Positions 22,936 through 47,368 are shown, counted from the first letter of the whole stretch. The stretch is 63,796 nt of DNA, filler included, from an uncultured bacterium (GCA_964506785.1; 5 parts of 5 records of this genome joined end to end with filler, not necessarily neighbours in it); one strand, 5' to 3'. Program-made: numbers and translations. Notes: a model not told the origin generated them from the sequence alone.

Positions 22936-22958
22936 TTATCTACCTCATTTTTACTGTT

Positions 22959-23004
22959 CCTGGTACCCTGATATCCTGATATCCTGATATCCTGATACCC
23001 TAAT
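22959..23004 (+). repeat. Octamer tandem array (consensus CCTGATAY), about 5.7 copies
   Basis: CCTGGTAC CCTGATAT CCTGATAT CCTGATAT CCTGATAC CCTAAT. Confidence 0.9.
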
Positions 23005-24906: not shown

Positions 24907-24941
24907 TTTTTACCTCCTTTTAACTTTATGTTATTCACCAT

Positions 24942-25445
24942 TCACTTCTTTTTACTCACCTTGACCATCGCCGGCCGAATTACCCGGTCGGCCAAGAGAT
25001 AGCCTTTCTGCAGCTCCTCAATAATCGTTCCTTCCGGATGTTTATCCGCTTCTTCCTGGCTGACAATTTCGTGCAGGCGCGGGTCAAATTTCTCTCCGTC
25101 GGTTTTCATCTCAACCAGCCCGGTTTTACTCAAAATTTCCTTAAGCTGTTTCTGAATCATTATTACCCCTTGTTTTAAAGAATCGAAATCCCGGTGATTA
25201 TGGGCCGAATCTATGGCCCGCTCAATATTGTCCATTACCGGGAGCAATTCCTGAATTAAAGATTCTTCGGCAAATTTAATAAGATTTTCCTTATCTCTTT
25301 CGGTGCGTTTTCGGAAATTCTCGAATTCAGCCTTAAGGCGAAGCAACTGGTCATATAATGCTTTGTTTTTCTCCGTTTCCTCGTCAAATTGCGTTTTCTT
25401 TGAATAGATAATAGAGCGGTCCTTGTATATGCTCATAGCTTGCAC
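24942..25445 (-). CDS. grpE: Nucleotide exchange factor GrpE
   Basis: LRLKAEFENFRKR, LLPVMDN.ERA, FDPRLHE, GY...RVIRPAMVKV. Confidence 0.97.
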   Translation of the reverse strand: MQAMSIYKDRSIIYSKKTQFDEETEKNKALYDQLLRLKAEFENFRKRTERDKENLIKFAEESLIQELLPVMDNIERAIDSAHNHRDFDSLKQGVIMIQKQLKEILSKTGLVEMKTDGEKFDPRLHEIVSQEEADKHPEGTIIEELQKGYLLADRVIRPAMVKVSKKK

Positions 25446-25456
25446 TTATCTCCTTC

Positions 25457-26488
25457 TTATGTTCCGGCTAATTGATTAATGGTGGAAGTCAATTGTTTGG
25501 CCGTCGAGGAAACCAAGGCCACGGCTTTGCGATAATCCATTCTCTTCGGCCCAATTACCCCTACCGTGCCAACCGAGACATTGCCCAATTTATAGGAGGC
25601 AAAAACAATGCTGCAATCCTCCATATCTTTACAGGCACACTCCCGGCCGATTAAAATCCTGATTTCATCAGCTTCTGAATTTTTAAAAATACGCTCAAAG
25701 GTTTCTTCCTTCTCCAGGCTTTTAAGCAAACTGCCGATTTTTTCTCTATCTTTAAATTCCGGTTCATCCAGAAAAAAACTGGTCCCATCCAAAAATATTT
25801 TTTTCTTCCCTTTTGTTTTAAGGAACTCTTTAAGTATCCGCTGGGCTTTTCTATAAAGGCGGCTAAAACTTTCTTTAGAAGACCCTTTAATCCCTAAGAG
25901 ACTTTGCTTTAACGATTCTTTATTCCGCTTATTCAAGAGCAGATTTAATTCCCGGAGTTCTTCCTCGGAAATCGGCTCTTCGACCTGAATAAATTTATCA
26001 TCCACCAGGCCGAAGCTGGAAACCAGGAGCATAAGGATTCTTTTGCCCCCGGTGGCCACTAATTCAATCCGGTCAAGGTTCTCTCCGGCAGACTGCGGGG
26101 CTAAAACAACCGCCGTATGATGGGTAACCGAAGCCAGCTTTTTTGAAGCCCTCCTGATAATCTCGTCAAGATTTCTCCTTTGGGAATGATATTCCCGGTT
26201 CAAATCCGAAAGGATTAACTTATCTATTTTTTCAATCTTAAGCAGATTATCGACATAAAAACGGTATCCTTTATCGGTCGGCACCCGCCCGGCGGAAATA
26301 TGCGGCTGCTTAAAATATCCGAGGGACTCCAATTCAACCATTTCGTTGCGAATAGTCGCCGGGCTTAAATTCAAATGATAATTTTCAACCAAGGCCCGGG
26401 AGCTAACCGGCCGGCTGGTTTGAATATATGACTCAACCGCCACGCTTAGAATATTTTTTTTTCTTTCATTGAGCTTTTCTTTAACCAT
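25457..26488 (-). CDS. hrcA: Heat-inducible transcription repressor
   Basis: SPATIRNEM, QPHISAGRVPTDKGYRFYVD, VIGPKRMDY. ATG at 26488. Confidence 0.97.
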   Translation of the reverse strand: MVKEKLNERKKNILSVAVESYIQTSRPVSSRALVENYHLNLSPATIRNEMVELESLGYFKQPHISAGRVPTDKGYRFYVDNLLKIEKIDKLILSDLNREYHSQRRNLDEIIRRASKKLASVTHHTAVVLAPQSAGENLDRIELVATGGKRILMLLVSSFGLVDDKFIQVEEPISEEELRELNLLLNKRNKESLKQSLLGIKGSSKESFSRLYRKAQRILKEFLKTKGKKKIFLDGTSFFLDEPEFKDREKIGSLLKSLEKEETFERIFKNSEADEIRILIGRECACKDMEDCSIVFASYKLGNVSVGTVGVIGPKRMDYRKAVALVSSTAKQLTSTINQLAGT

Positions 26489-26505
26489 CGCCCTTTCCCC
26501 GGAAT

Positions 26506-26532
26506 TTGGCACTCTCAAAGTTTGAGTGCTAA
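26506..26532 (-). promoter_or_regulatory. CIRCE operator (HrcA binding site)
   Basis: TTGGCACTC-N9-GAGTGCTAA, one mismatch from consensus, directly upstream of hrcA. Confidence 0.95.
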
Positions 26533-26560
26533 ATTATAGCACTTCCCTTATTTTTGTCAA
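26533..26560 (-). promoter_or_regulatory. Sigma-70 promoter of the hrcA operon
   Basis: Minus strand TTGACA, 16-nt spacer ending TGC, then TATAAT abutting CIRCE. Confidence 0.85.
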
Positions 26561-26675
26561 GAAAAAAATAAAAACCTTTTTCTCCCGGCGATTATTCCTC
26601 TCCCTGGGCAGTAGAAAGCTGGAATTAGCAACAAGGGGTGATTTCCGGGAGTAAAAGAATATTTAATAGGAATGA

Positions 26676-27950
26676 TTATGAAGCGCTATGAAGCTGGAGG
26701 ATATCGTTATACTCATCTATTTCTTTTTTGATATCATCAGTGGTCCTTAGGGGTTGTAGAATTATAATATTAGCGTTGCTGTCTGCCGGGGTTTGGAAAA
26801 TGTCGGCCAGTGAATAAACACTGATTCCCCCGGGCCTATCATCGAATAATACTATCTTTACCTGCCTATCTTTAGCTAATCGCAAGAGAGCATTTTTGTT
26901 TTCTTGCCTGATTTTACCCTTAATTACAGAAAGATGGCTTCCCGGAGTAATCGTCTTTTTAGCTAATTTTATAAGTTGGCCTATTTCCTCTACTTCATCA
27001 GAATTAACCAGAACCTCATCCTTCACTATAGTTACAATTCCTATCTTTGAATCTATTTCGCCAAGCATCTTTTCTAAAACCCTGGCCTTTCTTAAATCCT
27101 GGGCGGTTATAAAAATCTTCCCCAATTTGCCATTATCAGAAAGAACCCTTAAAACATTTTCGGCATCTATAAGGCCGCCGTCATTTAACAACTCTTCGGC
27201 ATAAATAATAAAATTCTGTTCAGTTTTAATATCCTTAACTAATTCAGCGGTTAATTCTGGGTATTCGGCTTTTCCTTTTAATCTTCCCCTGAAATCTTTA
27301 AAAAGAACCGGTAAGTTTAAGATTTCCTCGGCGTACTTTTGCTGTTCCGGATACATATACGCTCCGGGTATAGTCAAAAATTTCAAAAGATGTCTTCTGG
27401 CTCCTATTAACCTATTCTGCCTAAAGTATAAAATGCCCAGATTATAATGGGCTTCAGCAAAACGGGGTATTATCCTTATTGCTTCTTTATAAAATTCTTC
27501 TGCTTTTTCTAATTCCTCTAATAAACCCTGTTCTAGGTATAATATCCCCAGATTTAAATATGCTAACGCATATCGAGGATTTATATCTATCGCCCGCTTA
27601 TAACATTTTTCTGCGGCTTCCTCTAATCTACGCCTCATTATTATTACTTCTTCTAATCTTATCTTTTGAATGGCGGCGGCTTGTTTAGCTTTTTCTTCTT
27701 TTTCTCTTTTAATCCTTAGTTTCTCTATCGCCTCTTTTATAGCTTCATCTCTCGCCTTTTTCGCATATATTATCCCCAGTTCTGTATATAATAGAGTTTG
27801 CATTTCGGTCACTGGCTGTGTAAGCTGCAGTTTCCGGTGGAACCTTGAAACGGGTTTAATTTCTTGTTTTACTTCAACTTCGTATATATCTTTGATATCC
27901 TCCGGCAGTTTTAATCTCTCTTTAGGAATAATGCCGGAAGCCTCCGGTTG
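26676..27950 (-). CDS. TPR-containing protein, 5'-truncated at the contig end
   Basis: TPRs (CYKRAIDINPRYALAYLNLG, YKEAIRIIPRFAEAHYNLG). Frame stays open 46 codons upstream of 27812 to the contig edge. Confidence 0.8.
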   Translation of the reverse strand, partial: QPEASGIIPKERLKLPEDIKDIYEVEVKQEIKPVSRFHRKLQLTQPVTEMQTLLYTELGIIYAKKARDEAIKEAIEKLRIKREKEEKAKQAAAIQKIRLEEVIIMRRRLEEAAEKCYKRAIDINPRYALAYLNLGILYLEQGLLEELEKAEEFYKEAIRIIPRFAEAHYNLGILYFRQNRLIGARRHLLKFLTIPGAYMYPEQQKYAEEILNLPVLFKDFRGRLKGKAEYPELTAELVKDIKTEQNFIIYAEELLNDGGLIDAENVLRVLSDNGKLGKIFITAQDLRKARVLEKMLGEIDSKIGIVTIVKDEVLVNSDEVEEIGQLIKLAKKTITPGSHLSVIKGKIRQENKNALLRLAKDRQVKIVLFDDRPGGISVYSLADIFQTPADSNANIIILQPLRTTDDIKKEIDEYNDILQLHSAS

Positions 27951-28050
27951 NNNNNNNNNNNNNNNNNNNNNNNNNNNNNNNNNNNNNNNNNNNNTTAATT
28001 AATTAANNNNNNNNNNNNNNNNNNNNNNNNNNNNNNNNNNNNNNNNNNNN
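27951..28050. other. Artificial contig-join spacer
   Basis: N-run + TTAATTAATTAA + N-run. Confidence 0.97.
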
Positions 28051-31000
28051 AAGAGAAAAAAAAGTTAGAAAAAAAAAAGAAAAAAAACGGTATAGAAAAT
28101 GCCTTGAAAGATAAAAAGCTGAAAGAATTCTGGGAAAGGTTGGAAGGGGTAATAGAAGAACATGGCATAGAGGAATTATTTTATTTTGAACCTCAGCGGA
28201 GCAAACAGATGTTTCCTTTCCATTCAGAGCAGGCTGAATTGGAAAAAGCTAAATTGGGAGTAGTTGAACAGCTTCTCTCTCTGGGAGATTACAATCTTTA
28301 TATACAGAATAGGGAAAGACAGCTGATAGCCTCGGAAATAGGCCTTTACCCGTTTTTATTTAGCCTTCGCTTCTCCAGTGACGAAGAGTTAGAGGCGATA
28401 TATGGTGAAAAAGGGCGTATATCGCGCGGTGATTGGCAGCAACTAAAAGATATAGTTCTTGGTAAATCAGGAAGGGTGAAAGTTCCGGTAGTTGAAATAG
28501 CTGATTTATTAGATGAGCGAAATAAGGGTTTCTATGGCCATGCCGAAAATGTTAATGTTACAAGAAGAATCTGGCGGTCTTTACATTTAGACCGGGAAGG
28601 CCGAAAGGCGCTCGGGCTGGATGAGGCGGTTAATGCAAAGAGGATTTTTTATCCGGATGAATTTAAACCCGGTGAAGGCAGTTCTTGTCAGGGAATCATT
28701 AAGGGGACGGTTAATACCGGCAGAAAGGTTATCGTTGACCATAATAGCTATATCGAAATTGAAAAGGGAAAAGCACTATTTATCCCCAGCGGATTTATTA
28801 TTGATAATTGCCGGTTTGAAATCACTGAAAATTTTCCGGTCAGGTTTTACGGAGAGAAAGGACGGGTAACCGGGCTGGAATGGACTGCCGGTAAGGAACT
28901 TTACGATGTCAATGGAGCGAAGGTGGAAGAATTGATATTACGCGGCGATGAAACAGTAACCGCAATTGATATTGTTGATAAAAACGGCCAGACCAAATCG
29001 TATCTTTGCCGTTTAATTAACAGCCTGCCCCGCCGGGAGGTTAAAATAGGAGATATCTATAATATTCAGGATGAAGACGGCTGGAAGTATTTAGTCAACC
29101 AGCATCCGGAAATGCTGAGCCAATATGAAGATAAGTGGGAGGAGATTAAGGAGAAACAGTTTATAGATTTAGAAATATTTGGCGGATTCACCTATTATGA
29201 AGCTTTAAAACGGGTTGATGCTCTGAAATCGTACCAGAGGACAATTAACCTGCAAATAATGCTTCAGGAAGAGGAGAAAGGACTGGGTATTGAAGAAATA
29301 TTTAAGGAAGAATTTAAAAAAGCGGCCCCATTCCTTTCCCCGCGGGAACAGCTTATTATTCTTCTGAGGGCCTATACTGATTTTACTTTAGGAGAGATTG
29401 CCGAAAATGAAGAATTTCTTGATTTTACCGGTAATGCCAAAACCGGAAAGAAAGTTGGCAAACAGAGAATTGGAGATATTCAAGATAATGCTTTAAGTAA
29501 GTTGAGAAAGTGGAATATGGAGCTGGCCTCTTTTTCAGCCATGCTTGAAAGAAAAAGTTCCAAAGAAATAAATAATATCCCTGAAAATTTCCGCATGGCC
29601 TTGTTTAATTTAAGCAAAGAGGAACGGAAACAGCAGATGATACCTCGAGCGAAAGTGGAATTATATCTCTGGGCAATAAATAGGGACCCGAAGGGAATAG
29701 AAAAGGAATGGACTATAGCGAAAATTGCCCGGGATTCGGGTATTAGCGCTGTTACTATTATAGCTCATTTGCCGGCTGTCCAAAAACTCCTGGATACCGA
29801 AAACCTTCCGTCAATTAAGATAAAAGAAACCAAGAAGAAAATACTCAATCCACAAAAGGAAATTTATCAATGGGCCTGTATGAGGGATGAAGAAGGGAAA
29901 GCCAAAGAATGGAGCCAGGAAGAAATCAGCCGGGCGACGGGCTGTACTCTAGAGCAGGCAGATAAATATCTTCCTGATGTTGAGCTTGATTTGCAAAACA
30001 ATAATGAAGGTATAATTAAATTAAAGCCGGATTTAGTAACTGTTACCGGCCAGAGTTATATGGTTAACTATTTCAACCTCGATATCAATCAAGAAGGGTT
30101 ATATCCTTCTCCTATAGAATTTGAAGGGAATAAACTACAGGAAATAGTCGGCTGGGGTGATTCCGTGAGTGAAAAACTGCAGCCATTTAGTATACGGCTT
30201 GGGCAGGAAAAAAGAAATTTCAGAATTTTATATGATGAAGTAAAAAGAAGAATAATACTATTGAGGGAAATAAATGGTAGATGTATCCCGAGTGAATACT
30301 TCGAAATACAGTTGGAAGGAAAGTGTAAAGGTTTAGTTTGGTACAAATATAGTGAAGGGAAATCTGTTCTGGGTGCGGTCCCGCCGGTATTTACAGGGTT
30401 GGAAAGAAAAATCGGAAAATCGGAAGAATCAAAGATAGACAAAACGTTGATTATCGGAGCGGTGCGCGAAGCGGTGGAGGCCAGAGAATTAGAGTTAAAA
30501 TATCCTGAAGCCACTGTCTATTTCTTAGCCCGTCTTCCGGAAGATGATAGATATATCCGGGCATATCCGGTCCAGGGAAAAATAACAAATAGCCCGTTTA
30601 TGGTGCAGGAAGAAAAACAGGTAAGCCAGTTAGCCGATAGTTATGCCGTTGATAAAGATAGCCGGTTGAAGGTTATTGCTGAATCAGGGAGGCATGAGGT
30701 TAATGAAATGGTCGAGAAATTTGCTAATCTTCTGGTTTTATTGGATAACCAGGGAATTAAACCGGCGGATGAATTAACGGTTTCTATAACCGGACTGACT
30801 TCAAAACCGGAAAGAACCAGGCGTTTTATATCGGAAAGAACAGGTAGAAAAAGAGAAGAAGATGCCGGGAAGATAATCGAAGGTATTTTTCAGGCGCTTA
30901 GGGCGCGTAAAAGAAAGGATTTAAGCGGAAAAATTGAAGAACTTACCTCAAGCGGAAGGCTCATCCTGCGATTTGCCGGAGTTGACCTTGCTTATAGGTT

Positions 31001-34000
31001 TGATAAAGAGGAGAGAAAATGGGTAAAGGCAGGGGTGCAAGATAAGGCAGCTAAAAACAAAGGTTCTCTCAAAAAATGCCTTGAGACGATGCTGAATAAT
31101 GGTTGCTTTATATACGAAGATAAGGATAACTCGCTAAGCTTGGAAAAATTAATCGAGTTAAGGGGGATTAACCCACAGACCGGAAAGTCATACAGCCTTC
31201 CTACCGTCAGTCGAGAATTAAAATGCCTTTCTAATCTGGGTTTAGTGAAGAAGCATAAAGTTGATGGGATAATCAAATTTTATCTTGGTGACCAGCTAAA
31301 AGGCATATCAGAGGAGGTTAGAGAAAAAATTCTTGCTATCCCTCAGCTGGATAAACATGCCATTCCAGACGAAGAAATGGGCCGATTAGTGAAAGGCCAG
31401 TGGGAGGAAATTGCCGGGATTGAGGATTTATCTATTTTTCTAAAGCAGGATAGTCAGAAGCCATTTGGTAAACGAGTTGAAATATTCCAGGAATTAGGTC
31501 AACTTATGCTAAAGGGCCATTATCAAAGAGGGAATTCGCTGGCAGAGATTTTAAATGAACTCCGGCAAAAAGAAAATAAAGGTTTAATAGAGTTGACCAT
31601 TCCCCGGGTGAATTTTATCCGCAGGCTTATTAAAACCCGCACCAGAGAGATGGAAATAAATGCCCCCTCCGTCTATAACGCCGCAGATAAAGTTTTTGAA
31701 GCGCTTTACCCTAAACTCTCTCAGGCTCTGAAAGATTTAACCGCTGAATTATCCAGAGAGATTCTGGGGGTAGAAATTTTGGGAATAGGAAAAGAGGGAA
31801 AATATACGACTAAAGATGGAATTCTTTTCCTTGATAAAAAAGGGTATAAATTTGGTCCAAGGTTTTCCAATGTCCGGATTGAGTATGAAACCCGTTTAGC
31901 GGAAGCTATCCCGGCCGGAGAGACAAAAAAGAAAAGGATGGTAACCAGAGTATGGTTTTATAAAGATGGGATGGGACCAGAGCAGTTTTCTACCGCCAGG
32001 GATAAAAAGACAGGAAAACTTTTGTTTTCTTTTAGAAAACTGCGCCGTTCTAAATACCTCTCTATGGGAGAAGAATACAAAACTGAGGATGGCATTATCA
32101 TCAGGACAATGCTGACAGACGGAGTGCCCTATATAGGCGGAGAAAAACCTTATCCTTGGCAACCAATGATTTCTTATCGGAATGTCTGGGTAGATATACA
32201 TGTTCGAAAGGGAAAAAGAGTTAGCCTGCGTTTTATTAGGTTTGAAGGTGGGAATGAAATTATTGACTGCCAGGGTAATTTTCATCCCATTATCTATTTT
32301 GGGGAGGGTAAAGATATCAACAGGCAGTTAAAGGAAAAACTTCCTTCAGTAAAAACAAAGGACGAATATCAGGTAAATGCGGAACAATTTAAAGAAGCCC
32401 TTCGGCAGGCGGGTTTGCCGGAAGAGATTATTAAAGGCCTTTTTGATGGCCTGGTTAACAAAATGACTTCGCTAAAGATTAAAGCTGCCAGAAGGCGGCA
32501 GTTTGCAAAAAGTGGTTTGATTAGCCAAAAACAGCCGGGAATGCTTAAAAATATCGGGACAATCCCTTCAGATAAATTTTCCGAGCGCTTTCAACTTGAG
32601 GGGTTTGCCGAAACTATAAAAGATGAATTTAATAAATTTCGCTCAGGCGATGAAGATTTGGCTGGTTATGATTCACTTCAGGCGGGAGAGCTTGTTGTTA
32701 GGGGTTACACCCGGGAATATTTTAAAAAGATTAAATCTGAGACCGGCCTATCCCAGCCCTATACCTATGATTTCTTGAGGACGCATCGTTATCCGGGAAG
32801 CAAGGGGAGCCAACGTAAATTCATTGCTTCAGTAGAGCGGAAAAATGAGAGAAATCGCGAATTCAGAAAGAAAAAATTTAAAAAAATAGTTGACAAAATC
32901 GATATAAGAAGGATTGCTGAGGAATTCAGTATAACGGTGCCTTTCGTCAAAAGGGCTTTGGGACGCACCTTAGACGTTAAACAGACCTTAAATAGTTTGG
33001 ATAAAGTTAAGTCGGCATCTTTAGAAAGCGGTTTATCCCCACTGCTTGCCTTTCATCTAGTGGGTGTATATCAAATGTCCAAAGAGGATATTAATGAGGG
33101 GATTATTACTCTCGCGGATGTTTATAGAAACTTGGAGGAGAAAAGAGCCGATGAAATCCAGGTTTTTAAAGGAGAAATTAACTCTTTGAAAAAGCAACTT
33201 TTGTGTCTCCAAAGTGACGAAGATATAAATTTGTATCAAGAGAGCCGTAAAAAACTGGCAGATAATATACCACTAATCAAGTACGATATTGGGAGAGGAA
33301 ATCCTAAGCTCGATTACATCAAGCAGATTGTAATTGGAAATTTTGAGAAGAAAAAAGATGGATATCCGCGCTATAAAGCTTTTGATGAGGCCAAAGAAAT
33401 TAAAGAAGCCGGGGAAGGTATTGTCAATTCAAGAAGGACCCTGAGGGGATATCGTGCTCAAGTAACCAGGCTGTGGCAGGAATTCATTGGATTCGAAAAA
33501 AAGATTCAAGACGAGAATATTATAAAGGCCAAAGAAACAATGGAGGGGACCTTAAAATCGGTCTTAGCCCAGTTAAAATTATTATCCCCCGAAAATTGTA
33601 GCCAGATAGCCAAGGTGATACCCAGACACCTTTTTGATGTCCGCCATAGCTTGCGAAAGAGAATTGTTGAAAGGATGCGCAGGGGTAACCTCTTAACGGA
33701 TAAGCAGGCAGAAATGCTTATTAAACAGGATGTGGCAGTTTTTGAGAAACGGTTTAATTTGTCTTTATTTTGTCAAAAGCTTAAAGAGAATATGCAGCGA
33801 TTGGCGATTGAGCCGGTAGAAGGACAAAAAAGCGGATTTGCGGAGTTTTACATCCAGAGGATAGTAAGCAATGGATATGCCTGGAGTCTAATCGATGAAA
33901 TGTACAAATATATTTCCGGGTTGAACAAAGAGTTACTTTTATCGATAATTAGCGTGCGGAATCCGGGGGCCTATATATTTGTCAACTTCGAAGTTCTATT

Positions 34001-37000
34001 GCCGTCTTATCTTGAAGAAATAATGGAAAAACTAAAAAATGGAGATAAACTGAATACAGTTAAATTATGTGCCTTGATTAAAAACGGCCAGAATAATAAT
34101 AAAGAGGCTATTGTTGTCGGGCAAAAGGCTTTCAGCCTTCTTTATAAAGATTATCATTCTAAATACGGTAATAGATTGGAAGAAATCGTTAAGAAGTATC
34201 TTCCAGATTGGTCGTTGAGAGATGATTTTTTACAAAAAGCTAAGCTGGCCTGGGTGAAAGGAGTACTGAAAGGTCTTCCAAATTATAGCAGAGATAATGT
34301 AAGTCCGGGATACGAAGACAGCGGAAATAATGATGAAAAGTTCTGGGATAAAGTAGAAGATAATTTTATCCTAGAGTTCAGTACGCCAGAAGAGAAAGCG
34401 CGCAGAAGAGATTATTTCTCCTTTGTCTCCATAAACACACCGGTAAAAAATAAAAAAGCAGAATCCAAAGGGAAAGACGGCGGTAAGGCGACGATATCGG
34501 ATTTTAATTCAGACAAAAGCTTAGAGCAATGGAGTTTATTTGATAGAAAGGATGTAATAGATGCCTTTAATAAACTGGAGCAATCTGAACAGGATGTTAT
34601 TGAACGGGTTATGATTAACGAATTACCTTTAGAGGAGGTGGCTGAAGAATTAGGCTATGAAGTTATAGAGCTGCGTAAGGTTCTGGGGAATGCCGAAGGT
34701 AAATTAAGAAAAGTTCTATCCGCCAAGGGGTTTGGCCCGGAAGAAACTCCGCAAAAAAAATCCGGGTTGATTTCTATCCCGAAGCCGGGGTCCCCGGATT
34801 CTACTTCGCGCCACTATATACCTCAAAACATGAAAAATGCTTTTAGAGCCGGAGCCTTAAATCTTCTGGGTGTCCCTTCCTCCTTTCCGACTGATAGGGC
34901 TTTTTTGAAAAGAGCTGTCGGGCGAAAGGCGGTATGGAGAGATAGATCGCTTGATGATGATTCGGTGAAGAAGTTAGAAGAGCTGAATGAATTAGCGGAT
35001 GAACTGGGGATGCTTATTGATGATACTCCGAAGGATGAAAAATACGACAGGTATTTATTTGTCTGGATGTTCAGGAACCAGAAGCTGTGTGAAGCAATAA
35101 ACGACTGCCTTATTGAAATAGACTGGATTATAGATAGATGGAGAGGGAATGAAAGGGAAGAGGCATTTGCCTTTAAGTTAAAGCGGGCCGCGGAGGCGCT
35201 TAAGGAGCAGCCGGCAGAGAAAGGTGAAGGACTTATTTTTCAAACAATAGGGGATTTATTGGGACTGACCAGGCAGAGAGCGCAGCAGTTACACCAGGAG
35301 GCGGCGTTATTTTTTGCTGAAGGGAACCCGATAGAAGCAATTAACGGAATATTAGATAGTTTTAATGACGAATCTATGGATGATCGGTCAGGGAACCATC
35401 TGAATGGTCTATTGGAGAAAATCAAAAAAGGGCCGTTATCATTCGCTCCCCGCTTCAGTGAAAAGGCAGAAGCGGTAAACTGGCTGAGAGGCAACCGCCA
35501 TTTATTAGGTAATAAAGCCTTAGGCCATCTTATGCGTGAATTATGGAGATTAGGTAAGATTCCCTTCGGTGAGATTATGGAATGGCAGATGTTTGCGGCA
35601 GCATTTGATTATGCTTTAAAAAACGAAGGCTTAGTTAAAAAAGAAGTTGAATCTGCTTGGCGGAATTTAAAGGAAAATGAGCGGGAGAAAATCAAGAAAA
35701 ACCCTTCTAAAATTATTAGGTATATAGATAAGGGTAAATTTACCTATTTGAAAGGGAAGGAGGGGAAAAGCACTGTTCTTTCATCATCCTATTTCTATCT
35801 AATTATTCGAATCGGTCTGGGTTTATATTTGAAGGGGGGAAAAGACATTTCTGCAAGAGAAATTACCCGGGCGGGATTATTCAAAACTATGGCTTTTTTT
35901 GCCGGCTTTGGATTTTTAACCGGTATTTGGGGTGTTGGGTTTGTTGGATTAATCTCTTTAGTTATTTCGGGGACAGCTTTACTTGAAGCATTTTATGTGA
36001 ATAAAGCTTTGGTTGAAGGAAGCCGAGAAATTCGGGCCGGACCAGAAGAAATGGATAGATTGATTCCGGCCTTCCGCTATGAAGCTCAGCCGACAGAAGA
36101 AGGGGAAAATAAAATTTGCTATATAGATAAAGAAGGCCGGCTCAGAGTTAATCACTTAGCCATGAACCATATCCCTAAACCTCTCCAGTATCACTTCCTT
36201 TTTCATGAAAGAATCCATCAGTTAATTAAAACCCGCTCAAACAGATTCGATGAAGTGCTTGCTTATTCGCTGCAATTCCTGCCTTTCCTATATCCGGTAA
36301 TTTCTTTAATAATTTCTATTGCTTCTTCAAGCTCCTTTTCAGATGAGGAAGCCAAACCCAAAGTCTTAAAGGTCTGTCCCACCTACGGAGAGGCAAAATG
36401 GCTGGTTAAAAATACTAAAGGACTGTTTGTTATAAGAGAGGATTTTGATGGTGAAGATAAGAATTTTTATATCAGAGCCCTGTATTTAAAAGAAGACGGC
36501 CGGGAAGAACCAGCGGGATTCTGCCGATTCAAAGTATCAAGCCTTCAGGCGTTTACCGGGGAAGACAGCACTGATCTTGGGGTTAAAAAGGAATATCAAA
36601 ACTTAGGATTAGGAAGAATTATTCTGGCAGCTTTAATGAATTCAGCTAGGGATAAAGGGTGCCATCTTTTTATTGCAAAGCAGCCGCAAACAGCTCTTTT
36701 TGATGTGCTTGGGTTTAAGGCTAACAGCGGGGGATCAGTGGTCGGGGCATATAATGCATCTTTTGCCCCGAAGGAGAAAAGCAATGACTTAGAATTGCTT
36801 AAAAGATTAGCCGTGCCTATAGATGAGGCAGAAGAATATGTTGACTTAAATGAATCGGGTTTAGATATCAAAGCTATTATTTTTGATTTGGATGATACTT
36901 TATATAGAAACGAAGCATTAAAGGAAGATTATGATAACGAAGGGATTAAATTTGTAGCCAAAAGGCTTAAAATAGCCAATCCCGAGACGGTTAAAAAGAT

Positions 37001-40000
37001 ATTTTATAATACCCAGCGGGGTTTATCCGAAAAATTTATGGGGCTTTACGGCCGCCCGGCAACGCGCAGTGAAACATTAGAGCAACTGGGCATTAAAGTG
37101 GAAGATTGGGGAAAATGGAACAGAAAGAAAATCCGCCCGGAAAGATATCTCACCCGGGATGTTGAATTGCAAAAATCTCTTGTTTCTCTTTCAAAGAAAT
37201 ATAAATTGGCTATTGTAACTGATAATAGCTATGTGCAGACGAAAAGGATATTAAAAGCTTTAGGAATTAAAAAGTATTTTCGGGTGATTAAAGCCGCTGC
37301 CCGCAAGCCAAATCGGGCAGTTTTTCAAGCGGCTGTGAAAGAACTTGGAGTGGAGCCTGAGGGATGTATTGCTGCCGGCGACAGATATGAAATAGATGTC
37401 CAACCGGCCAAAGAAGCCGGGGCGCAGGAAGGAATCCTTATCAGTTCGCCTGAGGATATCTATAAGTTAGAAGGGCACCTGCAATATAGAAAAAGATTTA
37501 TTCAGTATTTTATTCAAAATAAGCCCAAAGAGTTTTATCTCGAAGATATTCTTAAGGTGTATAGGGATTTATCTAAAAAGGAAGTTATATATATCATCAA
37601 TGCCTTGGCAGAGCGGAAATTGAGTGGTGAATATTTTGAAATGTTTGACGACACAGGCAACCCGAGCGGGAAAATTAAGAAGATAGAAGGTGTGCGTTTA
37701 GAAGGTAAGAGGGAAATAAAAGAGCCGGATAATCTCAATAGGATAATAGATGAACATCCAGAGGTTGTTCTGGATAATTCAGAATTGGGCCGGGTGGTAA
37801 GCCTCAGGGAAATATGGCCTTTTTTAAATCAGGAAGGGGAACAATTATTAAGGGAGTTTTGGACCAATAAAGAGCCGGAAACACTTAAAGCTAATTTGCT
37901 GATTGGTTCTGGAGGGGAAATTTTAGGTTATCTTCAATATACTTTGAAAAGCGGCACTAAAGCAGAGTTAGATTTTATTCAGGTTATTCAAAAGCCGGCA
38001 GGCATTGAAAACCGCCGTATATATTTAATTTTGATGGGCGCTTTAATTGGAGAATTAAAAGCCCAGGGAATTAAAGAGTTCAGTTGGATTGCACTACCAG
38101 GTTCCGAGAGGTTTTACCATAAATGCTTATCGGAAAGAATGGATTATATAACTAATGGAGGATACAAATTTGTCGCTTATCTGGACACAGACGGGCGTTT
38201 AAGTAAAAGGCAGAAAGAAGAACAGAAGCGGTTTTTCAAATATTTTGTGCGTCGGGAAGCAAAGGGCGAATCGATTGAAGATAAAGAAAGAGTTACACCT
38301 TTAAAAACTAAGGTTTCTAAGATTACTAATCCCCAAAAATTACCAAGTAAGGTAAGAGAATACTGGCAGGGGCACGAATTTTTATATATCCTTGAGAATA
38401 AAAAGTTGGGGTATGCCGCTTATGTAGGCGTCCACGCCTATTTTAAAGACTGCCTGATAGACGGGAAATTACAAGCCATAGGAGGCATCAGAAACAAACC
38501 ATATAGGAATAAGACTGAGGCAATAATAGATGTTTTGAAATTATCGGAAGGGATGTCTAACAAAAATATTTTAGCCGGGGTTCCCTTAGGCGGGGCAAAG
38601 ATAGTTTTGCCTGATTTCTCAAGAGATTTAATTTCTTTTAACCCGAGGGTTAAGTTATTTAAACCTTTAGTCTCACTTATTTCTTCGGTTAACAGTTTGT
38701 ATAACAAATTTCTTAGAAGAAGGGTTCTTAAAAATCTCGCTTTGACCCTGGAAGAATTAGGGGTGATGATTACCGGGCAGGATGTGGGAATAAGCAAAAA
38801 GGATGTAAACTATATGGCAAAATACGCTCCCAATGTAATCAGCGGCACTCCGGGCCGGGCCCTGGGAGGGAAGCCGACTACGCCTTTTACAGCTGAAGGC
38901 GTTTATTATGGAATAAAAGAGGCCGTGAAATTTGCTTATGAGAAGAAATTACCTGGTTTTGATTCTCCAAAGTTGAAGGGAAAGAAAATAACATTACAGG
39001 GATTAGGCGGGGTTGGAAGCAGATTATTAAACTATCTTTTAAAAGACGGGGCAATAGTTTATGCCGCTGATGTCAATCCTGAAGCTGTAGAAAGGGTTAA
39101 AAAAGAATATGCTAAATTTTTGGAACAAAACTTATTTATTGTGGAAAATCCGGATGAGATTTATCAGGTAAAGGCCGATATATTTTCGCCATGTGGATTA
39201 GGGGCGGTATTGAATGAGAAGACAATTCCGTTATTAAAAGAGTCCGGTATAAAGGTTGTTGCCGGGGCAGCCAATAATCAATTAGCGAATCCTGAGAAAA
39301 ATGGTGATGGCCAACGTTTATTTGAAAGTGGAATTATTTATGTTCCGGACTATGTTATTAATTCAGGCGGTGTCCTGGCGGCTGCCAGTGAAGCTTTAGG
39401 ATACGATTTATCCGCCAAGGTTAAAAATATTGCCCGGACAGTAAGGGAGATTTTGGGGAAATCGTTTAAAAAGAGAAAACCTGCATCTGAGGTTGCTGAT
39501 ATTTTAGCCGGGGAGAAAATAAAGGAAATTAGAGTAAGCCGCTTTGAAGGAAAAACTTCATCAAAAGGGACGATAGCAAAATGCTTTAAGACAATGTATG
39601 AAAATGGAATTTTCAAAGGGAACGCTAAGACCCGCCGCCAATTAGAAGAATTGAGGGGCTTAAGTAGAAGCACCCTCCAGAGAGAATTAAGCGGCCTTGA
39701 GGCGATTGGATTGGTTGGAGTTGATAATTCCAATCCACAATTGCCAAAATATTATTTAACTGATAGATTGCGCGCCCCGCCTGAGGTAATAGAGAAAATT
39801 TGCAGCATAGGTGTCACCTCCGATAATCCGAAAGGGCTGCTTAACCGCTTTGAAATTCCTGCCGAGAAAATTTATTCCCTAAAAGTCATTGTCGATAATA
39901 TATTATCCGATTGGCCTTTTATTTCTTTTGACGACAGGCCGATTGGCCAGATTCCTGATTCAACTGAGGTTACAGACGAAAATTTAAAGAAAGAGATTAT

Positions 40001-41646
40001 CAACTCCCTTTCGGTTAGGGGAATTGGTTCTATTACTTTCCATGAAGGGACTGATGCTTCTAAACTTGGCCTCCTTAGTCAGCATATCAAGAAGGCGGGA
40101 AGTTTTACCTGGCCGATAATTATAGATGAAAAGGGCACTGTGCTGGATGGACGCCACCGCCCCGAAGGAATAGAGACAATAGGGATTTCAGGCGATAAGG
40201 CAGTTTTGGTTCAGGAAGTGGATTTAGATAATCCGGATTTAACCCTGGGTAGCTGGATTAGAATAATAAGGGGTAATAAAAGTCAATTAACAAACTGCGC
40301 CGAAGGATTAGGTTTTAAAAAGGGAGACTCCGGCGCGGGGGATGGCGAGATTTCAGTTTCGATTGCCGGAGAAGATTATTTTATAAAGGAAAGTGAAGCT
40401 TTATATGTCGAGGCAAAAAAGGCTTTTAAAGAAAATTATTCAGCGGCGGAAAACTTACCCGGAGAAATCAGGGAAAAGCTATTCAGTCATTATTTGGCCG
40501 GATTTATTTTAGGGAAAATTTCCGCAGGGGCGGATCTACCCGTTGATTATATATCCGACGAGCGCCGGGATTTATTAAAAAATGAAGAAGGGATTTTTAT
40601 AGCTGTTAAGGCATTTACCAAAGACGAATTCAGCCAAATTACAGATTTAAATATAGAATTTCCTCCCAAAAGCACCCGTTTTATTATCCCTTACCGGGTT
40701 GTTGGTATGGGGTTACCCCTAAACAGCTTTATTTCTATTCCTTCTGAAAACACTGAGCAATATACTAACAGCTTAACTAATGAATTTAGAAAAGCTCTTA
40801 ATGGATTGGAATTGGTAAATCTCGGGGAGGGGATATCCCTATCTGAAATTACTTCAGAAGTAAAAAGGTTCTATCAGGAGAGGCTTTATACTTTTAGAAA
40901 GGGCGGCAAAAAAGAAAGCCGGGGAAGAGACCGGTTTATTACGAACACAGCCAGGGAACTAAAACGGTACGAGAAAATTTTAAAAATAATAGGCCCGGCA
41001 GTAAGCATCTGGGGGGCGGCAAGAATTAAATTGGGAGGCAGATTCTTTGAAGAGGCAAAGCAATTAGCCGGGGTTATTTCAAATAAACATAATTTTTCTG
41101 ATGTAGCGAGCTTTCCCGAAGGTTTTTCCATAATTACCGGCGGCGGGCCGGGCATAATGATGGCCGCCAGCAGCGGCACCGATAAAGAGAATATATCTGT
41201 GGGATTAGAAATTGATATACCGCACGAACAAGAGTCTAGTAATTCGGCAATAGTTCAGAAGTTTAAATACTTCTTCGCTCGGAAGAATACTTTTATTAAT
41301 TTAAGCGAGGCTTTTATATGTATGGCCGGCGGGTTTGGCACCCTTGATGAATTTTTTGAGGTTATGGCTTTAAAAAACAAGGGATATATGGATAATTTTC
41401 CCGTTATTCTATATGGCAAGGATTTCTACAAAGGGCTTTTTGGGTTGTTAAAGGATGTTGAGAGGCGTCATTTTTTAAGAAGGCCGCTTGATAAATTAAT
41501 TAATTTGGCTGATTCTCCCGAGCAGGTAAAAAATATTCTCAAGGATAAAGCACCCGCTTCTTTAAAGGAGAAGAATGGGGTAGATATCCGCAAGGCAATA
41601 CGAGATTTATATAAAAGCATTAAAAAACTGGATGGCATAGGTCCGG
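28051..41646 (+). CDS. Giant multidomain protein fragment (more than 4500 aa), open at both ends
   Basis: No stop codon from 28053 to 41646. Sigma-4-like/HTH, wHTH repeats, TM, HExxH, GNAT, HAD, Glu/Leu/Phe/Val dehydrogenase, ParB/SerK-like and LOG motifs. Confidence 0.93.
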
Positions 41647-41746
41647 NNNNNNNNNNNNNNNNNNNNNNNNNNNNNNNNNNNNNNNNNNNNTTAATTAATT
41701 AANNNNNNNNNNNNNNNNNNNNNNNNNNNNNNNNNNNNNNNNNNNN
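41647..41746. other. Artificial contig-join spacer
   Basis: N-run + TTAATTAATTAA + N-run. Confidence 0.97.
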
Positions 41747-41805
41747 TCCCCTAAAGAAATAAACTTTTTTGAACCCTCGATAGCCAGCTGAATAAGTTCA
41801 AACAT
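41747..41805 (-). CDS. Start of an unidentified gene cut by the contig end
   Basis: RBS GAGGTG followed by ATG, MFELIQLAIEGSKKFISLG... Confidence 0.45.
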
Positions 41806-41898
41806 TTTTCACCTCTTAATAAAGAAAACGTCTCTTTTAATTACTGCTGCGTTTCCTAACCGGGGTAATATTTCCCCTTGAGTTTTCCGTTTTAACTT

Positions 41899-44580
41899 TC
41901 AATACGTCAAAGCTTTAAAACTTTCCTCTAATTTATCGAGCTTTTGTTTAAGCTGGGACTCAAAGATTTTATTTTTTTCAATAACACCCTTGGGCGCCCG
42001 CTGTAAAAAATCCTTGTTCAAGAGCCGCGTCTGCACCTGCAAAAAGTTATTTTTCACTCTGGCGATTTCTTTTTTTAATCTTGCCTTTTCCTTTTGCATA
42101 TCAATCAATCCTGCCAGAGGCAGAAAAATCTCCAGTTTCCCGACTACCGCGGTCGCAGAGGGCTTGGGTTTATCAATTTCGTTTTTCACCACCAAATCTT
42201 TTATTTTAGCCAAATTCTTTAAAATCCGGCTGTTATTCAGTAAAATATTTCGAGAGGCAGAAACGGGCGCTCGAATCAAAACTTTTATTTCCCGGCTAGG
42301 GGAGATATTTATCTCTCCTCTAATGTTCCTTATGGCGGTAATTACGCTAATCAACAACGCCATATTTTTTTCGGCACCCGGATTAGTAAATTGACGCCTC
42401 TTTTTCGGCCAAGAAACGGCCATAATACTTTCTCCCGGGACTGAAAGTTTCTGCCAAATTTCTTCCGTGATAAAAGGGATAAAGGGGTGCAGCAAACGCA
42501 ACGATGTTTCTAAAACATGGTGAAGTATTGTTTGCGTAATTTTTCGATGCCCTTTCTCCTCCAAGTAAATTTTGGAAATCTCGACATACCAATCGCAGAA
42601 TTCATGCCAGAGAAAATTATACACGGTGAAAGCCGCCTCATTAAAGCGATAATTTTGAAGTGAAGCCTCTACCCTGCCAATGATTTTTTCCAGACGGCTG
42701 ATAATCCAGGCATCAGAAAGATTGAACTTTTCGATTTTAAAATCCTCCCGGGTAAACTGGTAATTTTCCAGATTTCTCAAAGTAAAACGGGAAAGATTCC
42801 AGATTTTATTGGCAAAATTCCTGCCCATCTCAAACTTAGTTTCGGAAAGAAGGACATCCTGTCCTTCGCTGGTCAAAGTAATCAGACTGAATCGGACGGC
42901 ATCGGTGCCAAAACGATTAATCATGTCCAAAGGATCTATGCCGTTTCCTAAAGATTTACTCATTTTTCTGCCCAGCCCATCTAAAATCGTCCCGTGGATA
43001 TAAACCTGCCGGAACGGGACAGCTCTCATAAACTCTAAACCCATCATAATCATCCGGGCAACCCAAAAGAAAATTATTCCCCGGTCAGTTACCAAAACCG
43101 AAGTAGGATAGAAATAATTCAGGCCTTTCGTTTTCTTCGGCCAACCCAGGGTAGAAAACGGCCAGAGGGCTGAAGAAAACCAGGTATCCAAAACATCTTC
43201 ATCCTGATAAATATCCTTTGATTTGCAAACCGGGCATCTATCCGGTTTCGTCCGGGAAACAATAATTCCTTTTTTATTATCTTTTGATTCCTCCTCTGCC
43301 TTATCCTGGCAACGGCGGCAATAATAAACCGGTAATCGATGACCCCACCAAATCTGCCGGGAAATACACCAATCTTTTATTTCCTGCATCCAGGAAAGAT
43401 AAAATTTTTCCCAGCGTGAGGGGAAAAAACAAATCTTTTTTGATTTTACGGCGTTTACTGCCGGCCTGGCTAATTTTTTCATCTTGACAAACCACTGCAG
43501 CGAAAGCACCGGCTCAACCGCTGTACGGCAGCGATAACATCTTCCGATAGCATGAGAATAATTTTCTTCCTTAGATAAAAGTCCGGTTTTTGCTAAATCC
43601 TCCAATACCTTCCGGCGGCATTCTTCCCGGGTCAATCCCTGATAGGCCATACCGGCCTCACCAGTCATTTTCGCCCGACTATCAATGACTACCGGTGCAT
43701 CCAGTTTATAACGCTGGCCAACTAAAAAATCAGCGGCATCATGAGCCGGGGTTATTTTAACCGCTCCGGTGCCAAATTTCCGGTTGACAAAATCATCGGC
43801 CAAAACCGGGATTTCACGTTTTTTTAAAGGAAGCATAACCATCCGGCCAACTGCATTTTTATACCGCTTATCTTTAGGATGAACGGCTACGGCCGTATCA
43901 CCCAGGATGGTTTCTGGACGGGTAGTAGCCACAACAATAAATTCGTCCCGGGCATCTTTAAAGGGATATTTTACATAATAAAGGCTGCCTTTTTCTTCAG
44001 TATAGTCTACCTCAATATCAGAAAGGGCAGTGAGACATCGCGGGCACCAATTAATGATATACCTGCCCCGGTAGATATACCCCTTTCTGTAAAGATGGAT
44101 AAATGCCTCTTTAACCGCTTCCGACAAACCCTCATCCAGAGTAAATCTTTCCCTGGCCCAATCACAGGAAGACCCTAATTTTTTAAGCTGCTTAATAATC
44201 GTCCGGCCATATTCGTTCCTCCACTGCCAAACCTTTTTAATAAAAGCCGGCCTGCCCATCTGGTGGCGGCTCTTCTTTTTTTTCTGTAATTCTTTTTCAA
44301 CGACATTCTGGGTGGCAATCCCGGCATGGTCTGTTCCCGGAAGCCAGAGGGCCGATTTTCCTTTCATTCTCTGCCAACGAATAAGAATATCCTGAATGGT
44401 GTTATTCAGAGCGTGCCCCATATGAAGTTCACCGGTAATATTCGGCGGCGGGATAACAATGGTATAGGCTTTCTTTTTTCTATCAATACGAGCATTAAAA
44501 AAACCATTCTTCTCCCAAAAGCGATACCATTTATCTTCTACTTCTTTGGGGTTATATTGCGGCGGCAGTTCCTTTAGCAT
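41899..44580 (-). CDS. valS: Valyl-tRNA synthetase
   Basis: PPPNITGELHMGH, DWCISRQIWWGH, KMSKS, C-terminal coiled coil. Confidence 0.99.
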   Translation of the reverse strand: MLKELPPQYNPKEVEDKWYRFWEKNGFFNARIDRKKKAYTIVIPPPNITGELHMGHALNNTIQDILIRWQRMKGKSALWLPGTDHAGIATQNVVEKELQKKKKSRHQMGRPAFIKKVWQWRNEYGRTIIKQLKKLGSSCDWARERFTLDEGLSEAVKEAFIHLYRKGYIYRGRYIINWCPRCLTALSDIEVDYTEEKGSLYYVKYPFKDARDEFIVVATTRPETILGDTAVAVHPKDKRYKNAVGRMVMLPLKKREIPVLADDFVNRKFGTGAVKITPAHDAADFLVGQRYKLDAPVVIDSRAKMTGEAGMAYQGLTREECRRKVLEDLAKTGLLSKEENYSHAIGRCYRCRTAVEPVLSLQWFVKMKKLARPAVNAVKSKKICFFPSRWEKFYLSWMQEIKDWCISRQIWWGHRLPVYYCRRCQDKAEEESKDNKKGIIVSRTKPDRCPVCKSKDIYQDEDVLDTWFSSALWPFSTLGWPKKTKGLNYFYPTSVLVTDRGIIFFWVARMIMMGLEFMRAVPFRQVYIHGTILDGLGRKMSKSLGNGIDPLDMINRFGTDAVRFSLITLTSEGQDVLLSETKFEMGRNFANKIWNLSRFTLRNLENYQFTREDFKIEKFNLSDAWIISRLEKIIGRVEASLQNYRFNEAAFTVYNFLWHEFCDWYVEISKIYLEEKGHRKITQTILHHVLETSLRLLHPFIPFITEEIWQKLSVPGESIMAVSWPKKRRQFTNPGAEKNMALLISVITAIRNIRGEINISPSREIKVLIRAPVSASRNILLNNSRILKNLAKIKDLVVKNEIDKPKPSATAVVGKLEIFLPLAGLIDMQKEKARLKKEIARVKNNFLQVQTRLLNKDFLQRAPKGVIEKNKIFESQLKQKLDKLEESFKALTY

Positions 44581-45517
44581 TATCTTTTTCCTTCTTCTTC
44601 TTCTCTATATATCTAGCGGCGGATAGAGCGGCAATGGTCCCTTCAGCACAGGCCACATCCACCTGCTTTAATTCTTTTTCCCGAACATCACCGACGGCAT
44701 ATATCCCGGTTAAAGAGGTCTCCATCTTTTCATTCGTAATAATGTAGCCTGATTCATTTAATTTAATCAAATCTCCCAGAAATTTAGAATTTGGCAAAAA
44801 TCCGACGTAGATAAAAACTCCGGAGACCTCGATATCCTTTTTTATGATTGAGCCCTTGTCCTGCACAGTAATCGAGGTAACAACATCTTTGCCGTTTATA
44901 GAAACAGGAATATGGTTTAAAAAAAGTTTTATTTTTTTGTTCCTTTTTAATTCTTCCTGTAAAATCTTAGCGGCCCGCAGTTCCTGGCGGCGGTGGACCA
45001 AAATTATCTGCCGGGCAAACCTGGTTAATGATAATGCTTCCTCTGCCGCCGCATCCCCGCCTCCGATGACAGCAATATCCTTGCCTCTATAGAGAGGACC
45101 GTCACAAATTCCGCAGTACGAAACACCTTTACCGGCATATTCCTTCTCGCCGGGAATATTCAAATTCCTGGGAATAGCACCAGAGGCGATAATGACCGCA
45201 TAAGCAGTAAATCTTTCTTTATCTGTGCGTATTTCTATAGCATCCCCTTCCGGAATAATTTTTTTTACTTCCTTCAATTCGATAATTTCAACACCGAACT
45301 TCTCTGCCTGCTTTTTAAAACGGGCCATTAAATCCGGCCCTTCGATGCCTTCCGGGAAACCGGGATAGTTCTCGATAAATTCGGTTGCCGCAGCCGCGCC
45401 TCCAACCAATCCCTTTTCCAATAATAAGGTTTTTATCCTTTCTCTGGCGGCATAAATAGCGGCCGTCAATCCTCCGGGACCGCCGCCGATAATTATTAAG
45501 TCGTACTCAGTCATCAA
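44552..45517 (-). CDS. trxB: Thioredoxin reductase
   Basis: GGGPGG, GVSYCGICDG, GGGDAA.EEA, VHRR, AVGDV. Confidence 0.93.
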   Translation of the reverse strand: MMTEYDLIIIGGGPGGLTAAIYAARERIKTLLLEKGLVGGAAAATEFIENYPGFPEGIEGPDLMARFKKQAEKFGVEIIELKEVKKIIPEGDAIEIRTDKERFTAYAVIIASGAIPRNLNIPGEKEYAGKGVSYCGICDGPLYRGKDIAVIGGGDAAAEEALSLTRFARQIILVHRRQELRAAKILQEELKRNKKIKLFLNHIPVSINGKDVVTSITVQDKGSIIKKDIEVSGVFIYVGFLPNSKFLGDLIKLNESGYIITNEKMETSLTGIYAVGDVREKELKQVDVACAEGTIAALSAARYIEKKKKEKDNAKGTAAAI

Positions 45518-45583
45518 AAAGTTCCCTTTTCCCAGTAAACAACGCCAAAATAGTAACGAGATTTATGAGAAATGAAAAGAAGT

Positions 45584-46584: not shown

Positions 46585-46668
46585 AATTGCGCAGTCACTT
46601 TCTATTCGGTCGTCGTTATCGGTCGAAAAGCTGCTTAGCTGAAAATTAAATAACAGAAACCGGAAAAA

Positions 46669-47349: not shown

Positions 47350-47368
47350 AATACCGTTCCTTTATAAA

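Follow-up and report, generated by a model that had tools for sequence, protein, structure and literature searches.

The giant reading frame and its support

In this study we explored a window of 63,796 nucleotides (nt) from the genome of an uncultured bacterium (GCA_964506785.1), and within it one giant gene that takes up the whole of a contig. The window joins five contigs (1-13983, 14084-27950, 28051-41646, 41747-55328 and 55429-63796), and the gene is the entire third one, 28051-41646. On the plus strand, 28053-41645, it presents 4531 codons with zero stops, in a frame truncated by both contig ends. A preliminary description, made from the sequence alone, had reported just such an uninterrupted frame of about 13.6 kb, open at both ends; internal stops, which it named as grounds for doubt, do not occur, and the codon usage is host-like. 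The remaining two forward frames contain 31-43 and 45-62 stops per 500 codons, from which we estimate the chance of an equally long open frame at less than 1e-100. Codon frequencies correlate with those of 25 other open reading frames (ORFs) of the window at r 0.95; in the shifted frames the correlation falls to 0.57 and 0.43. The GC content at each of the three codon positions is uniform along the whole frame, and tetranucleotide use follows that of the other contigs (r 0.89-0.96).

Independent data point the same way. Of the 31-mers sampled from window 30000-39999, fractions of 0.91-0.98 occur in public sequencing runs of sediment and seawater metagenomes (five runs, four studies). A JGI metagenome contig of 47,057 bases, L001, aligns with window 34556-41646 over 7091 nt at 99.9% identity, with six mismatches and no gaps, and four of these six differences between two assemblies are synonymous. 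L001 furthermore prolongs the frame by 1479 codons, down to a stop at L001 11530. The search for the missing ends proposed earlier has thus succeeded at the 3' end: the known ORF spans at least 6010 codons (18 kb), its 5' end still open. The alignment with P0002, a protein from Candidatus Omnitrophota introduced below, is collinear across the point where L001 starts. What the contig holds is a genuine part of a single giant gene that codes for protein. We consider it highly improbable that the frame is an assembly chimera or open by chance. Both contig ends are breaks, the 5' end being A-rich and of low complexity, and 28051-29999 lies outside the independent support; against this stand L001, the several runs, the uniform codon usage and the collinear homology across the L001 start. 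For these first 1.9 kb the support comes from codon usage.

The A-rich stretch at the 5' end, 28051-28095, reads in frame as a lysine run, could equally be an untranslated leader and is probably what caused the assembly to break there. The contig joins are N runs around a TTAATTAATTAA spacer (13984-14083, 27951-28050, 41647-41746 and 55329-55428), and neighbours in the window are not neighbours in the genome. ORFs that span the spacers are artefacts of joining, for example the apparent end of the giant gene at 41702. The fourth contig has a separate internal gap of 10 N at 54226-54235. Residues are numbered throughout from window position 28053.

Relatives and domain content

A full HMMER pass of aa 1201-2400 against 1.84 billion representative proteins returned six matches, and homology with these relatives is limited to aa 1256-2227. 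All four matches that are named are NCBI proteins of Candidatus Omnitrophota metagenome-assembled genomes (MAGs), 1407-5430 aa long and three of them marked partial. Two, P0002 and P0003, bear the name 'sigma factor' through NCBI automatic naming. P0002 is the best match (30% identity, 809 columns, E 5e-84). The shared module begins beta-rich, becomes all-helical and closes with a sigma-like domain; its AlphaFold (AF2) model, computed from a six-sequence alignment, is all helical with a mean predicted local distance difference test score (pLDDT) of 74.5. At the end of the module, aa 2143-2221 match TIGR02937 (sigma70-ECF, for extracytoplasmic function) with E 9.1e-11 and 41.7 bits, just below the cut-off of 42.9. 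Model residues 713-780 superpose on region 4 of at least 23 sigma-factor entries among the 50 matches listed (Z about 8-9.9), the top ECF sigma matches reaching Z 9-9.9 at a root-mean-square deviation of 0.9-2.8 Å over 57-67 residues. Foldseek found no match to the module model at E ≤ 0.001, and its best sub-threshold matches were again ECF sigma factors; the helical part preceding the sigma-like domain gave only generic coiled-coil or helical-repeat structural matches. Sigma region 2 (Sigma70_r2) was not found in the giant frame by Pfam, the model has a pLDDT below 50 at residues 631-720, and in P0002 this region reaches 21.1 bits, below the Pfam cut-off of 24. Because region 2 is undetectable, we call aa 2143-2225 a sigma-like domain and not a sigma factor.

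Outside this module relatives were elusive. Word-based searches found no homologue for aa 1-1200 among proteins of 2101-5000 aa, nor for the whole length among proteins of 2492-7930 aa; this type of search also missed P0002 and a further family member, P0005. A PDB sequence search with aa 1-1255 and aa 2228-2800 yielded nothing useful, scans of genome contigs and of viral contigs revealed no relative, and PADLOC reported 0 families. P0002 and P0005 both have M as their first residue and an N-terminus that is not hydrophobic, and 1462 and about 1560 aa, respectively, precede the module in them, compared with at least 1445 here. Because these N-terminal arms are of similar length and not hydrophobic at their start, the comparison suggests that the gene starts close to where the contig does and that the protein would comprise about 6,000 aa with a cytoplasmic N-terminus. 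P0002 2251-2379 and P0005 30-152 are 41% identical (E 3e-20), and the giant proteins that share the sigma-like module exchange or rearrange modules. The stretch in question is a module of about 130 aa (…RGPP.LR… HESQP.E..GL.AQ) that lies behind the sigma-like domain in P0002 and opens the protein in P0005.

Elsewhere in the window the contigs are of bacterial type and hold housekeeping genes of ordinary size (RpoD, DnaG, MtaB, DnaJ, DnaK, HrcA, ValRS, RadA and DnaB). Together with the named relatives, this agrees with the link to Omnitrophota drawn in the preliminary description and supports, without proof for the contig itself, an origin of the giant gene in an Omnitrophota-type bacterium. 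On the minus strand of the second contig, 15193-26518, rpoD and dnaG are adjacent, followed by mtaB and then by a heat-shock cluster of dnaJ, dnaK and hrcA; this rpoD shows that the bin has a normal stand-alone RpoD.

The single frame, with the tail recovered on L001, carries Sigma70_r4, GNAT, HAD, ELFV (two Pfam domains), a MarR-like winged helix-turn-helix (wHTH), two LOG domains and M23 (table 1). Most of this had been read earlier from motifs, and the hidden Markov model (HMM) searches confirmed nearly every call: the sigma and helix-turn-helix (HTH) domains, the GNAT at about 36460-36720, the HAD at about 36870-37470, the Glu/Leu/Phe/Val dehydrogenase at about 38370-39530, the LOG at about 40960-41540, the possible start of a second LOG (now complete on L001) and, weakly, the wHTH that follows the dehydrogenase. 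The broader claim, a piece of a giant gene made of normally stand-alone cytoplasmic-type domains rather than adhesin repeats, is likewise upheld by the domain searches. The HAD domain scores 62 bits on PF13419 (cut-off 23.8), and DLDDT, T, K and GDxxxD are readable in its sequence. The dehydrogenase matches NF035922, the tryptophan dehydrogenase model ScyB, at E 7.7e-59 and 199 bits against a cut-off of 600; its best PDB matches are leucine dehydrogenases (3vpx, 3.9e-46), PF00208 gives 46-52 bits (cut-off 23.4) and PF02812 28.5 bits in a slice (cut-off 25.3), and the sequence contains GGAK and GLGGVG. LOG1 reaches 80 bits on PF03641 (cut-off 27) and 3.7e-30 on PDB entry 5wq3, with GGFGTLDE present. 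As family motifs we take DxDxT and GDxxxD for HAD, the catalytic Lys in GGAK and the GxGxxG NAD(P) site for ELFV, PGGxGTxxE for LOG, and HxxxD and HxH for M23; read against these, the catalytic motifs of HAD, ELFV, LOG1, GNAT1 and M23 are apparently intact. Substrates are not transferable to these domains, because none of them reaches an NCBIfam equivalog cut-off.

Two calls fared less well. The ParB/SerK-like domain placed at about 40030-40720 aligned collinearly with chain residues 63-231 of two PDB entries, the free serine kinase 5x0b (E 1.2e-4) and 1vk1 (E 5.2e-4), but had no Pfam match in aa 4026-4216. The 5x0b match consists of two collinear stretches, each individually at E >0.4, and includes DGRHR where the family motif is DGHHR; a language-model atlas gave a ParB_N lead at 0.89, and an AF2 model of aa 3835-4330, with no alignment supplied, was unusable (pLDDT 35). 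The identity of this domain is probable. The second GNAT-like domain, claimed at about 37885-38180, is so far a lead without confirmation: aa 3278-3376 have no Pfam match and only chance-level hits in the PDB sequence search (E about 0.2), the atlas offering feature matches of 0.93-0.95, some to GNAT-named clusters.

The two wHTH copies are related to each other: their Smith-Waterman score is 113, compared with a mean of 28 and a maximum of 55 in 500 shuffles (z 15.8). BLASTP of the protein against itself gave no internal repeats, and the pair emerges only in the targeted Smith-Waterman comparison. The copies are diverged, stand 2,800 aa apart and share the pattern KC..TM..NG.F … LRG … REL..L…GLV … YL.D.L.

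Table 1. Features of the giant frame in the window (aa, residue numbers in the frame).
Feature	Residues (aa)	Window position	Strand	Basis or remark
Stop-free frame		28053..41645	+	4531 codons; the whole known ORF has at least 6010
N-terminal arm	1-1255	28053..31817	+	Without family or detectable relative
Short sigma-70 region 4 / LuxR-type HTH	428-451	29334..29405	+	PF04545 E 9.9e-6 (slice); TIGR02937 E 0.0011
wHTH module copy 1	1002-1110	31056..31382	+	HTH_5 E 0.03; paralogue of copy 2
Module common to Omnitrophota giant proteins	1256-2227	31818..34733	+	Homology
Sigma-70 region 4-like domain	2143-2225	34479..34727	+	TIGR02937, model fit
Possible further sigma region 4-like HTH (weak)	2391-2417	35223..35303	+	PF04545 E 0.23; motif LGLTRQRAQQL
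Membrane module	2575-2763	35775..36341	+	Hydropathy, motifs, P0003 homology
GNAT acetyltransferase domain	2801-2888	36453..36716	+	PF00583 E 4e-7, 30.7 bits (cut-off 20.7)
HAD-IA phosphatase-type domain	2939-3125	36867..37427	+	PF13419 8.5e-17, TIGR02253 2.3e-26
Claimed second GNAT-like domain, unconfirmed	3278-3376	37884..38180	+	Language-model match only
Leu/Phe/Trp-type amino-acid dehydrogenase (ELFV) domain	3439-3827	38367..39533	+	NF035922, PF00208, PF02812, 3vpx
wHTH module copy 2	3836-3940	39558..39872	+	MarR_2 E 3.2e-4, HVO_A0261_N; weak wHTH 3858-3890
SerK/ParB-like domain (probable)	4026-4216, DGRHR at 4032	40128..40700	+	PDB matches
LOG (lysine-decarboxylase-like / nucleotide phosphoribohydrolase) domain 1	4303-4501	40959..41555	+	PF03641 2.4e-22, TIGR00730 4.3e-22
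Linker, then the beginning of LOG domain 2		41556..41645	+	Continues on L001 7091-7630

Membrane modules, C-terminal arm and a proposed layout of the protein

Between the sigma-like domain and the enzymes lies a membrane module. A Kyte-Doolittle scan finds hydrophobic runs at aa 2575-2593 (weak), 2612-2650 (peak 2.04) and 2735-2763 (peak 1.81). The loop before the last of them holds HERIH at aa 2718, 17 aa ahead of that run, and DEVLAY immediately precedes it. This is the sole HExxH in 4531 aa, where about 0.03 would be expected by chance (from composition, with 41 His). The arrangement of transmembrane (TM) segment, HExxH and second TM segment noticed in the preliminary description is therefore present. 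A counterpart exists in P0003, whose sigma-like domain ends at 1180. Hydrophobic stretches at 1200-1249 and 1352-1381 come after it, with HELIH at 1334 between them, so that the module begins 20 aa past the sigma-like domain. The two modules align with a BLASTP E of 0.004 and a Smith-Waterman z of 12.2, having RAGP, F-HE-IH and DE-LAY in common. A homologous TM-HExxH-TM module thus follows the sigma-like domain in two of the four family members that cover the region; P0002 and P0005 are without it there. Searched against Pfam (E ≤ 5) and NCBIfam (E ≤ 1), the module matches 0 families, M50 or any other protease included.

These features invite comparison with a membrane-tethered sigma-like regulator that regulated proteolysis would free when contact with the envelope or with prey is sensed outside. 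The sigma region 4 fold is backed by sequence and model, the sigma-like domain precedes a homologous TM-HExxH...DExLAY-TM module both here and in P0003, and the chance expectation for the motif is low. Yet region 2 is undetected in the giant frame and falls short of its cut-off in P0002, the membrane module belongs to no protease family in either database, and half of the relatives covering the region do without it. We regard the protein as quite unlikely to be such a regulator.

The C-terminal tail, known from L001, opens with the second LOG domain (L001 7091-7630; PF03641 1.1e-25, 90.7 bits, cut-off 27; PDB 9us2 3.4e-30), which reads GGPGTLDE. After it comes a moderately hydrophobic segment with a K/R-rich flank before it, then a weakly matched transglutaminase-like core with a CGGYA motif, and then an M23 peptidoglycan peptidase (2.3e-12, 47.4 bits, cut-off 28.7) with HSGLD and HLH. 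About 360 residues of the tail match no family. A recent LOG duplication was rejected as cause of the contig break, since the two copies resemble each other at the nucleotide level only where the two query windows themselves overlap.

Further along L001, on the plus strand, a 150-aa ORF (11542-11994) begins 12 nt past the stop of the giant gene. A single hydrophobic helix lies at the N-terminus of its product, and a repeat of about 30 aa occurs in it twice (…KTTFIGEGVFIQ… and …KVTLVGKDVFVQ…); the product matches no family and could be a small membrane partner. The region 11997-15494 encodes a Hel308-like helicase, with the Pfam family 'Archaeal helicase, domain 4' at 3.6e-35, and a GTPase with MMR_HSR1 and a C-terminal TGS domain (DRG-like). 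An archaeal origin, as these two genes might indicate, was rejected, since the other window contigs are bacterial and the relatives Omnitrophota; these archaeal-type genes may reflect either transfer or normal gene content of the PVC group.

Enzymes that depend on NAD(P), acetyl-CoA or nucleotides are of a cytoplasmic kind, as are domains of the DNA-binding type, and M23 peptidases act on peptidoglycan outside the membrane. The simplest topology that accommodates both has the N-terminus inside. On balance, we lean towards a scaffold tethered in the membrane, which would link the hydrolysis of a cell wall outside with the handling of amino acids and nucleotides and with regulatory modules inside. 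In such a protein a long cytoplasmic N-terminal arm would bear the HTH, the wHTH and the family-specific helical module with its sigma-like end. A two-helix membrane hairpin would then display the small HExxH...DE loop of 85 aa, and a second cytoplasmic arm would hold the small-molecule enzymes (GNAT, HAD phosphatase, Leu/Phe/Trp-type dehydrogenase, SerK-like kinase and tandem LOG). After LOG2 the chain would pass the membrane once more into an outside arm of about 1230 aa with the transglutaminase-like core and the M23 endopeptidase, and the wall cut by it may be the cell's own or that of prey. While the reality of the ORF, the identities of the domains, the relatives and the C-terminus are shown by the data, this topology, the coupling and the integrity of the chain are our inference.

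Several points weigh against the scaffold. The topology is drawn solely from Kyte-Doolittle hydropathy and from counts of charged residues, the 39-aa run (2612-2650) may form a single helix or a pair, the segment in the tail stays under the hydropathy threshold of 1.4, and a signal peptide is possible, the 5' end being open. The transglutaminase-like call is weak, its two best Pfam matches (E 0.05-0.07) lying below threshold. LOG2 is without GGG, which we take to be the usual LOG motif, has Q in place of the R of LOG1, and looks partly degenerate. No pathway logic connects the enzymes, and word-based (and therefore weak) searches, with the whole length against proteins of 2492-7930 aa and with aa 3130-4531 against proteins of 771-2454 aa, detected no fused relative of the enzyme block; because of this, the order of the block may not be under selection as a unit.

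Some of these points would fit a product of accretion, in which separate genes became fused by stop loss in a lineage tolerant of very long genes, some domains still function while others are decaying, and the whole has no integrated function. The restriction of the relatives' homology to aa 1256-2227, the module shuffling between P0002 and P0005 and the degenerate look of LOG2 and of sigma region 2 agree with this, as does the statement in the main text of a preprint on giant proteins that 80% of clusters of proteins of at least 10,000 aa are singletons (10.64898/2026.06.07.730766). A frame undecayed across 18 kb, intact-looking catalytic motifs in HAD, ELFV, LOG1, GNAT1 and M23 and the predominance of synonymous differences between the assemblies (four of six) speak against it, and we consider accretion unlikely.

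The preliminary description had suggested that the chain may be a cargo polyprotein, exported or processed so as to bring enzymes and regulators into, for example, a host or a prey cell; MARTX-type toxins and viral polyproteins work in such a manner. Cytoplasmic-type domains would meet their cofactors in a prey cytoplasm too, and the chain has possible proteases in the HExxH loop, the weak transglutaminase-like Cys-His-Asp core and M23. M23 enzymes, however, cut peptidoglycan cross-bridges and are not known to cut polyproteins. West-Roberts et al. (10.1101/2023.11.21.568195) raise the possibility that C39 or S8 domains cleave giant proteins, and a predatory or host-dependent life of Omnitrophota is reported in PMC10066038. 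Nothing was found in support of cargo here: among the Pfam matches over 6010 aa there is no signal, secretion, C39, S8, C80, RTX or SecA-like domain. Separate internal translation starts at domain borders were also considered and rejected; a strong Shine-Dalgarno-like sequence precedes just one of the 55 in-frame ATGs, so that the layout makes no provision for initiating each domain on its own, and the same count stands against delivery as cargo. The C-terminus, with its hydrophobic segment, transglutaminase-like core and M23, is more simply accommodated by a membrane anchor with a small outside arm. Export or processing as cargo seems quite unlikely.

Next to the scaffold we also entertain, as a long shot, a self-contained signalling precursor. 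In it the TM-HExxH...DExLAY-TM module would hold the sigma-like or HTH arm and the enzyme arm at the inner membrane. Once the M23/transglutaminase-like arm engaged a wall outside, this module or a partner protease would make a cut that sets free a transcription factor and enzymes inside.

Known giant proteins and implications

Giant multi-enzyme proteins of Omnitrophota are a known kind. Giant ORFs (>20 kb) are described as common in Omnitrophota and poorly conserved by Seymour et al. 2023 (PMC10066038). The main text of Nielsen & Lui 2026 (10.64898/2026.06.07.730766), with a catalogue threshold of at least 10,000 aa, defines a class 1 of 'multi-enzyme metabolic cluster', gives GNAT and HAD within the first Pfam module of its multi-enzyme giants and counts 46% of TM-only, inner-membrane-anchored architectures. 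That of West-Roberts et al. 2023 (10.1101/2023.11.21.568195) presents Archaeovorins with glycolytic enzyme domains, GNAT and lytic enzymes.

The protein studied here resembles these multi-enzyme giants and Archaeovorins in its very long ORF, in its many enzyme families, GNAT and HAD included, of which none dominates, and in its internal TM segments, its wall-hydrolase theme, its poor conservation outside small modules and its relatives among Omnitrophota. Unlike the catalogued giants, its known length is about 6,000 aa (18 kb) and not at least 10,000, with the 5' end open; unlike giants of the Archaeovorin or dockerin type, it has no SecA-like, HEAT, glycosyltransferase or dockerin domain among the Pfam matches over 6010 aa. 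Its sigma-like and HTH modules, ELFV, SerK-like domain and tandem LOG set it apart from what the main texts of the two giant-gene preprints describe. The word 'sigma' has 0 occurrences in these main texts, from which supplements and catalogues may differ, and a literature search for giant Omnitrophota proteins with a sigma factor found nothing pertinent. Thus, while the giant multi-enzyme kind is already known, neither the family of the sigma-like module nor the HExxH membrane module that accompanies it was found in print.

Comparison with better-known systems is equally mixed. The region 4 HTH is that of ECF-type sigma factors, and the adjoining membrane module with a zinc-protease-like motif recalls tethered sigma/anti-sigma systems. 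Unlike sigma factors, however, the domain sits inside a chain of more than 6000 aa and has no detectable region 2, and unlike site-2 protease (M50) systems the HExxH module matches no protease family and is missing in two of the four relatives that span this region. With MARTX toxins and viral polyproteins the protein has in common that unrelated domains, several in number and each usually found alone, are joined into a single chain. It differs from them in that no repeat regions, C80 or other autoprocessing protease or secretion signal were found in the 6010 aa known, and in that it carries housekeeping enzymes, not known effectors. The individual domains match stand-alone Leu/Phe/Trp dehydrogenases, type II LOG, HAD-IA, archaeal SerK and LytM/M23 proteins over near-full family length, but here all are fused in one frame.

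In some Omnitrophota genomes giant genes take up a considerable portion of the sequence. The TM-HExxH...DExLAY-TM module has so far been found only in Omnitrophota giant proteins, and the sigma-like module in a handful. At about 6,000 aa the present protein is small for its kind, and with a known 3' end, a start that is perhaps close and two membrane modules it offers a tractable case, whose recognisable and apparently intact domains can be assayed singly. On which side of the membrane the enzyme block lies, whether the chain is cleaved and whether the sigma-like domain contacts RNA polymerase are questions that can be addressed with it. If true, the signalling precursor would represent a new coupling of prey or envelope contact to gene expression, and would give a first mechanistic handle on the giant genes of Omnitrophota.

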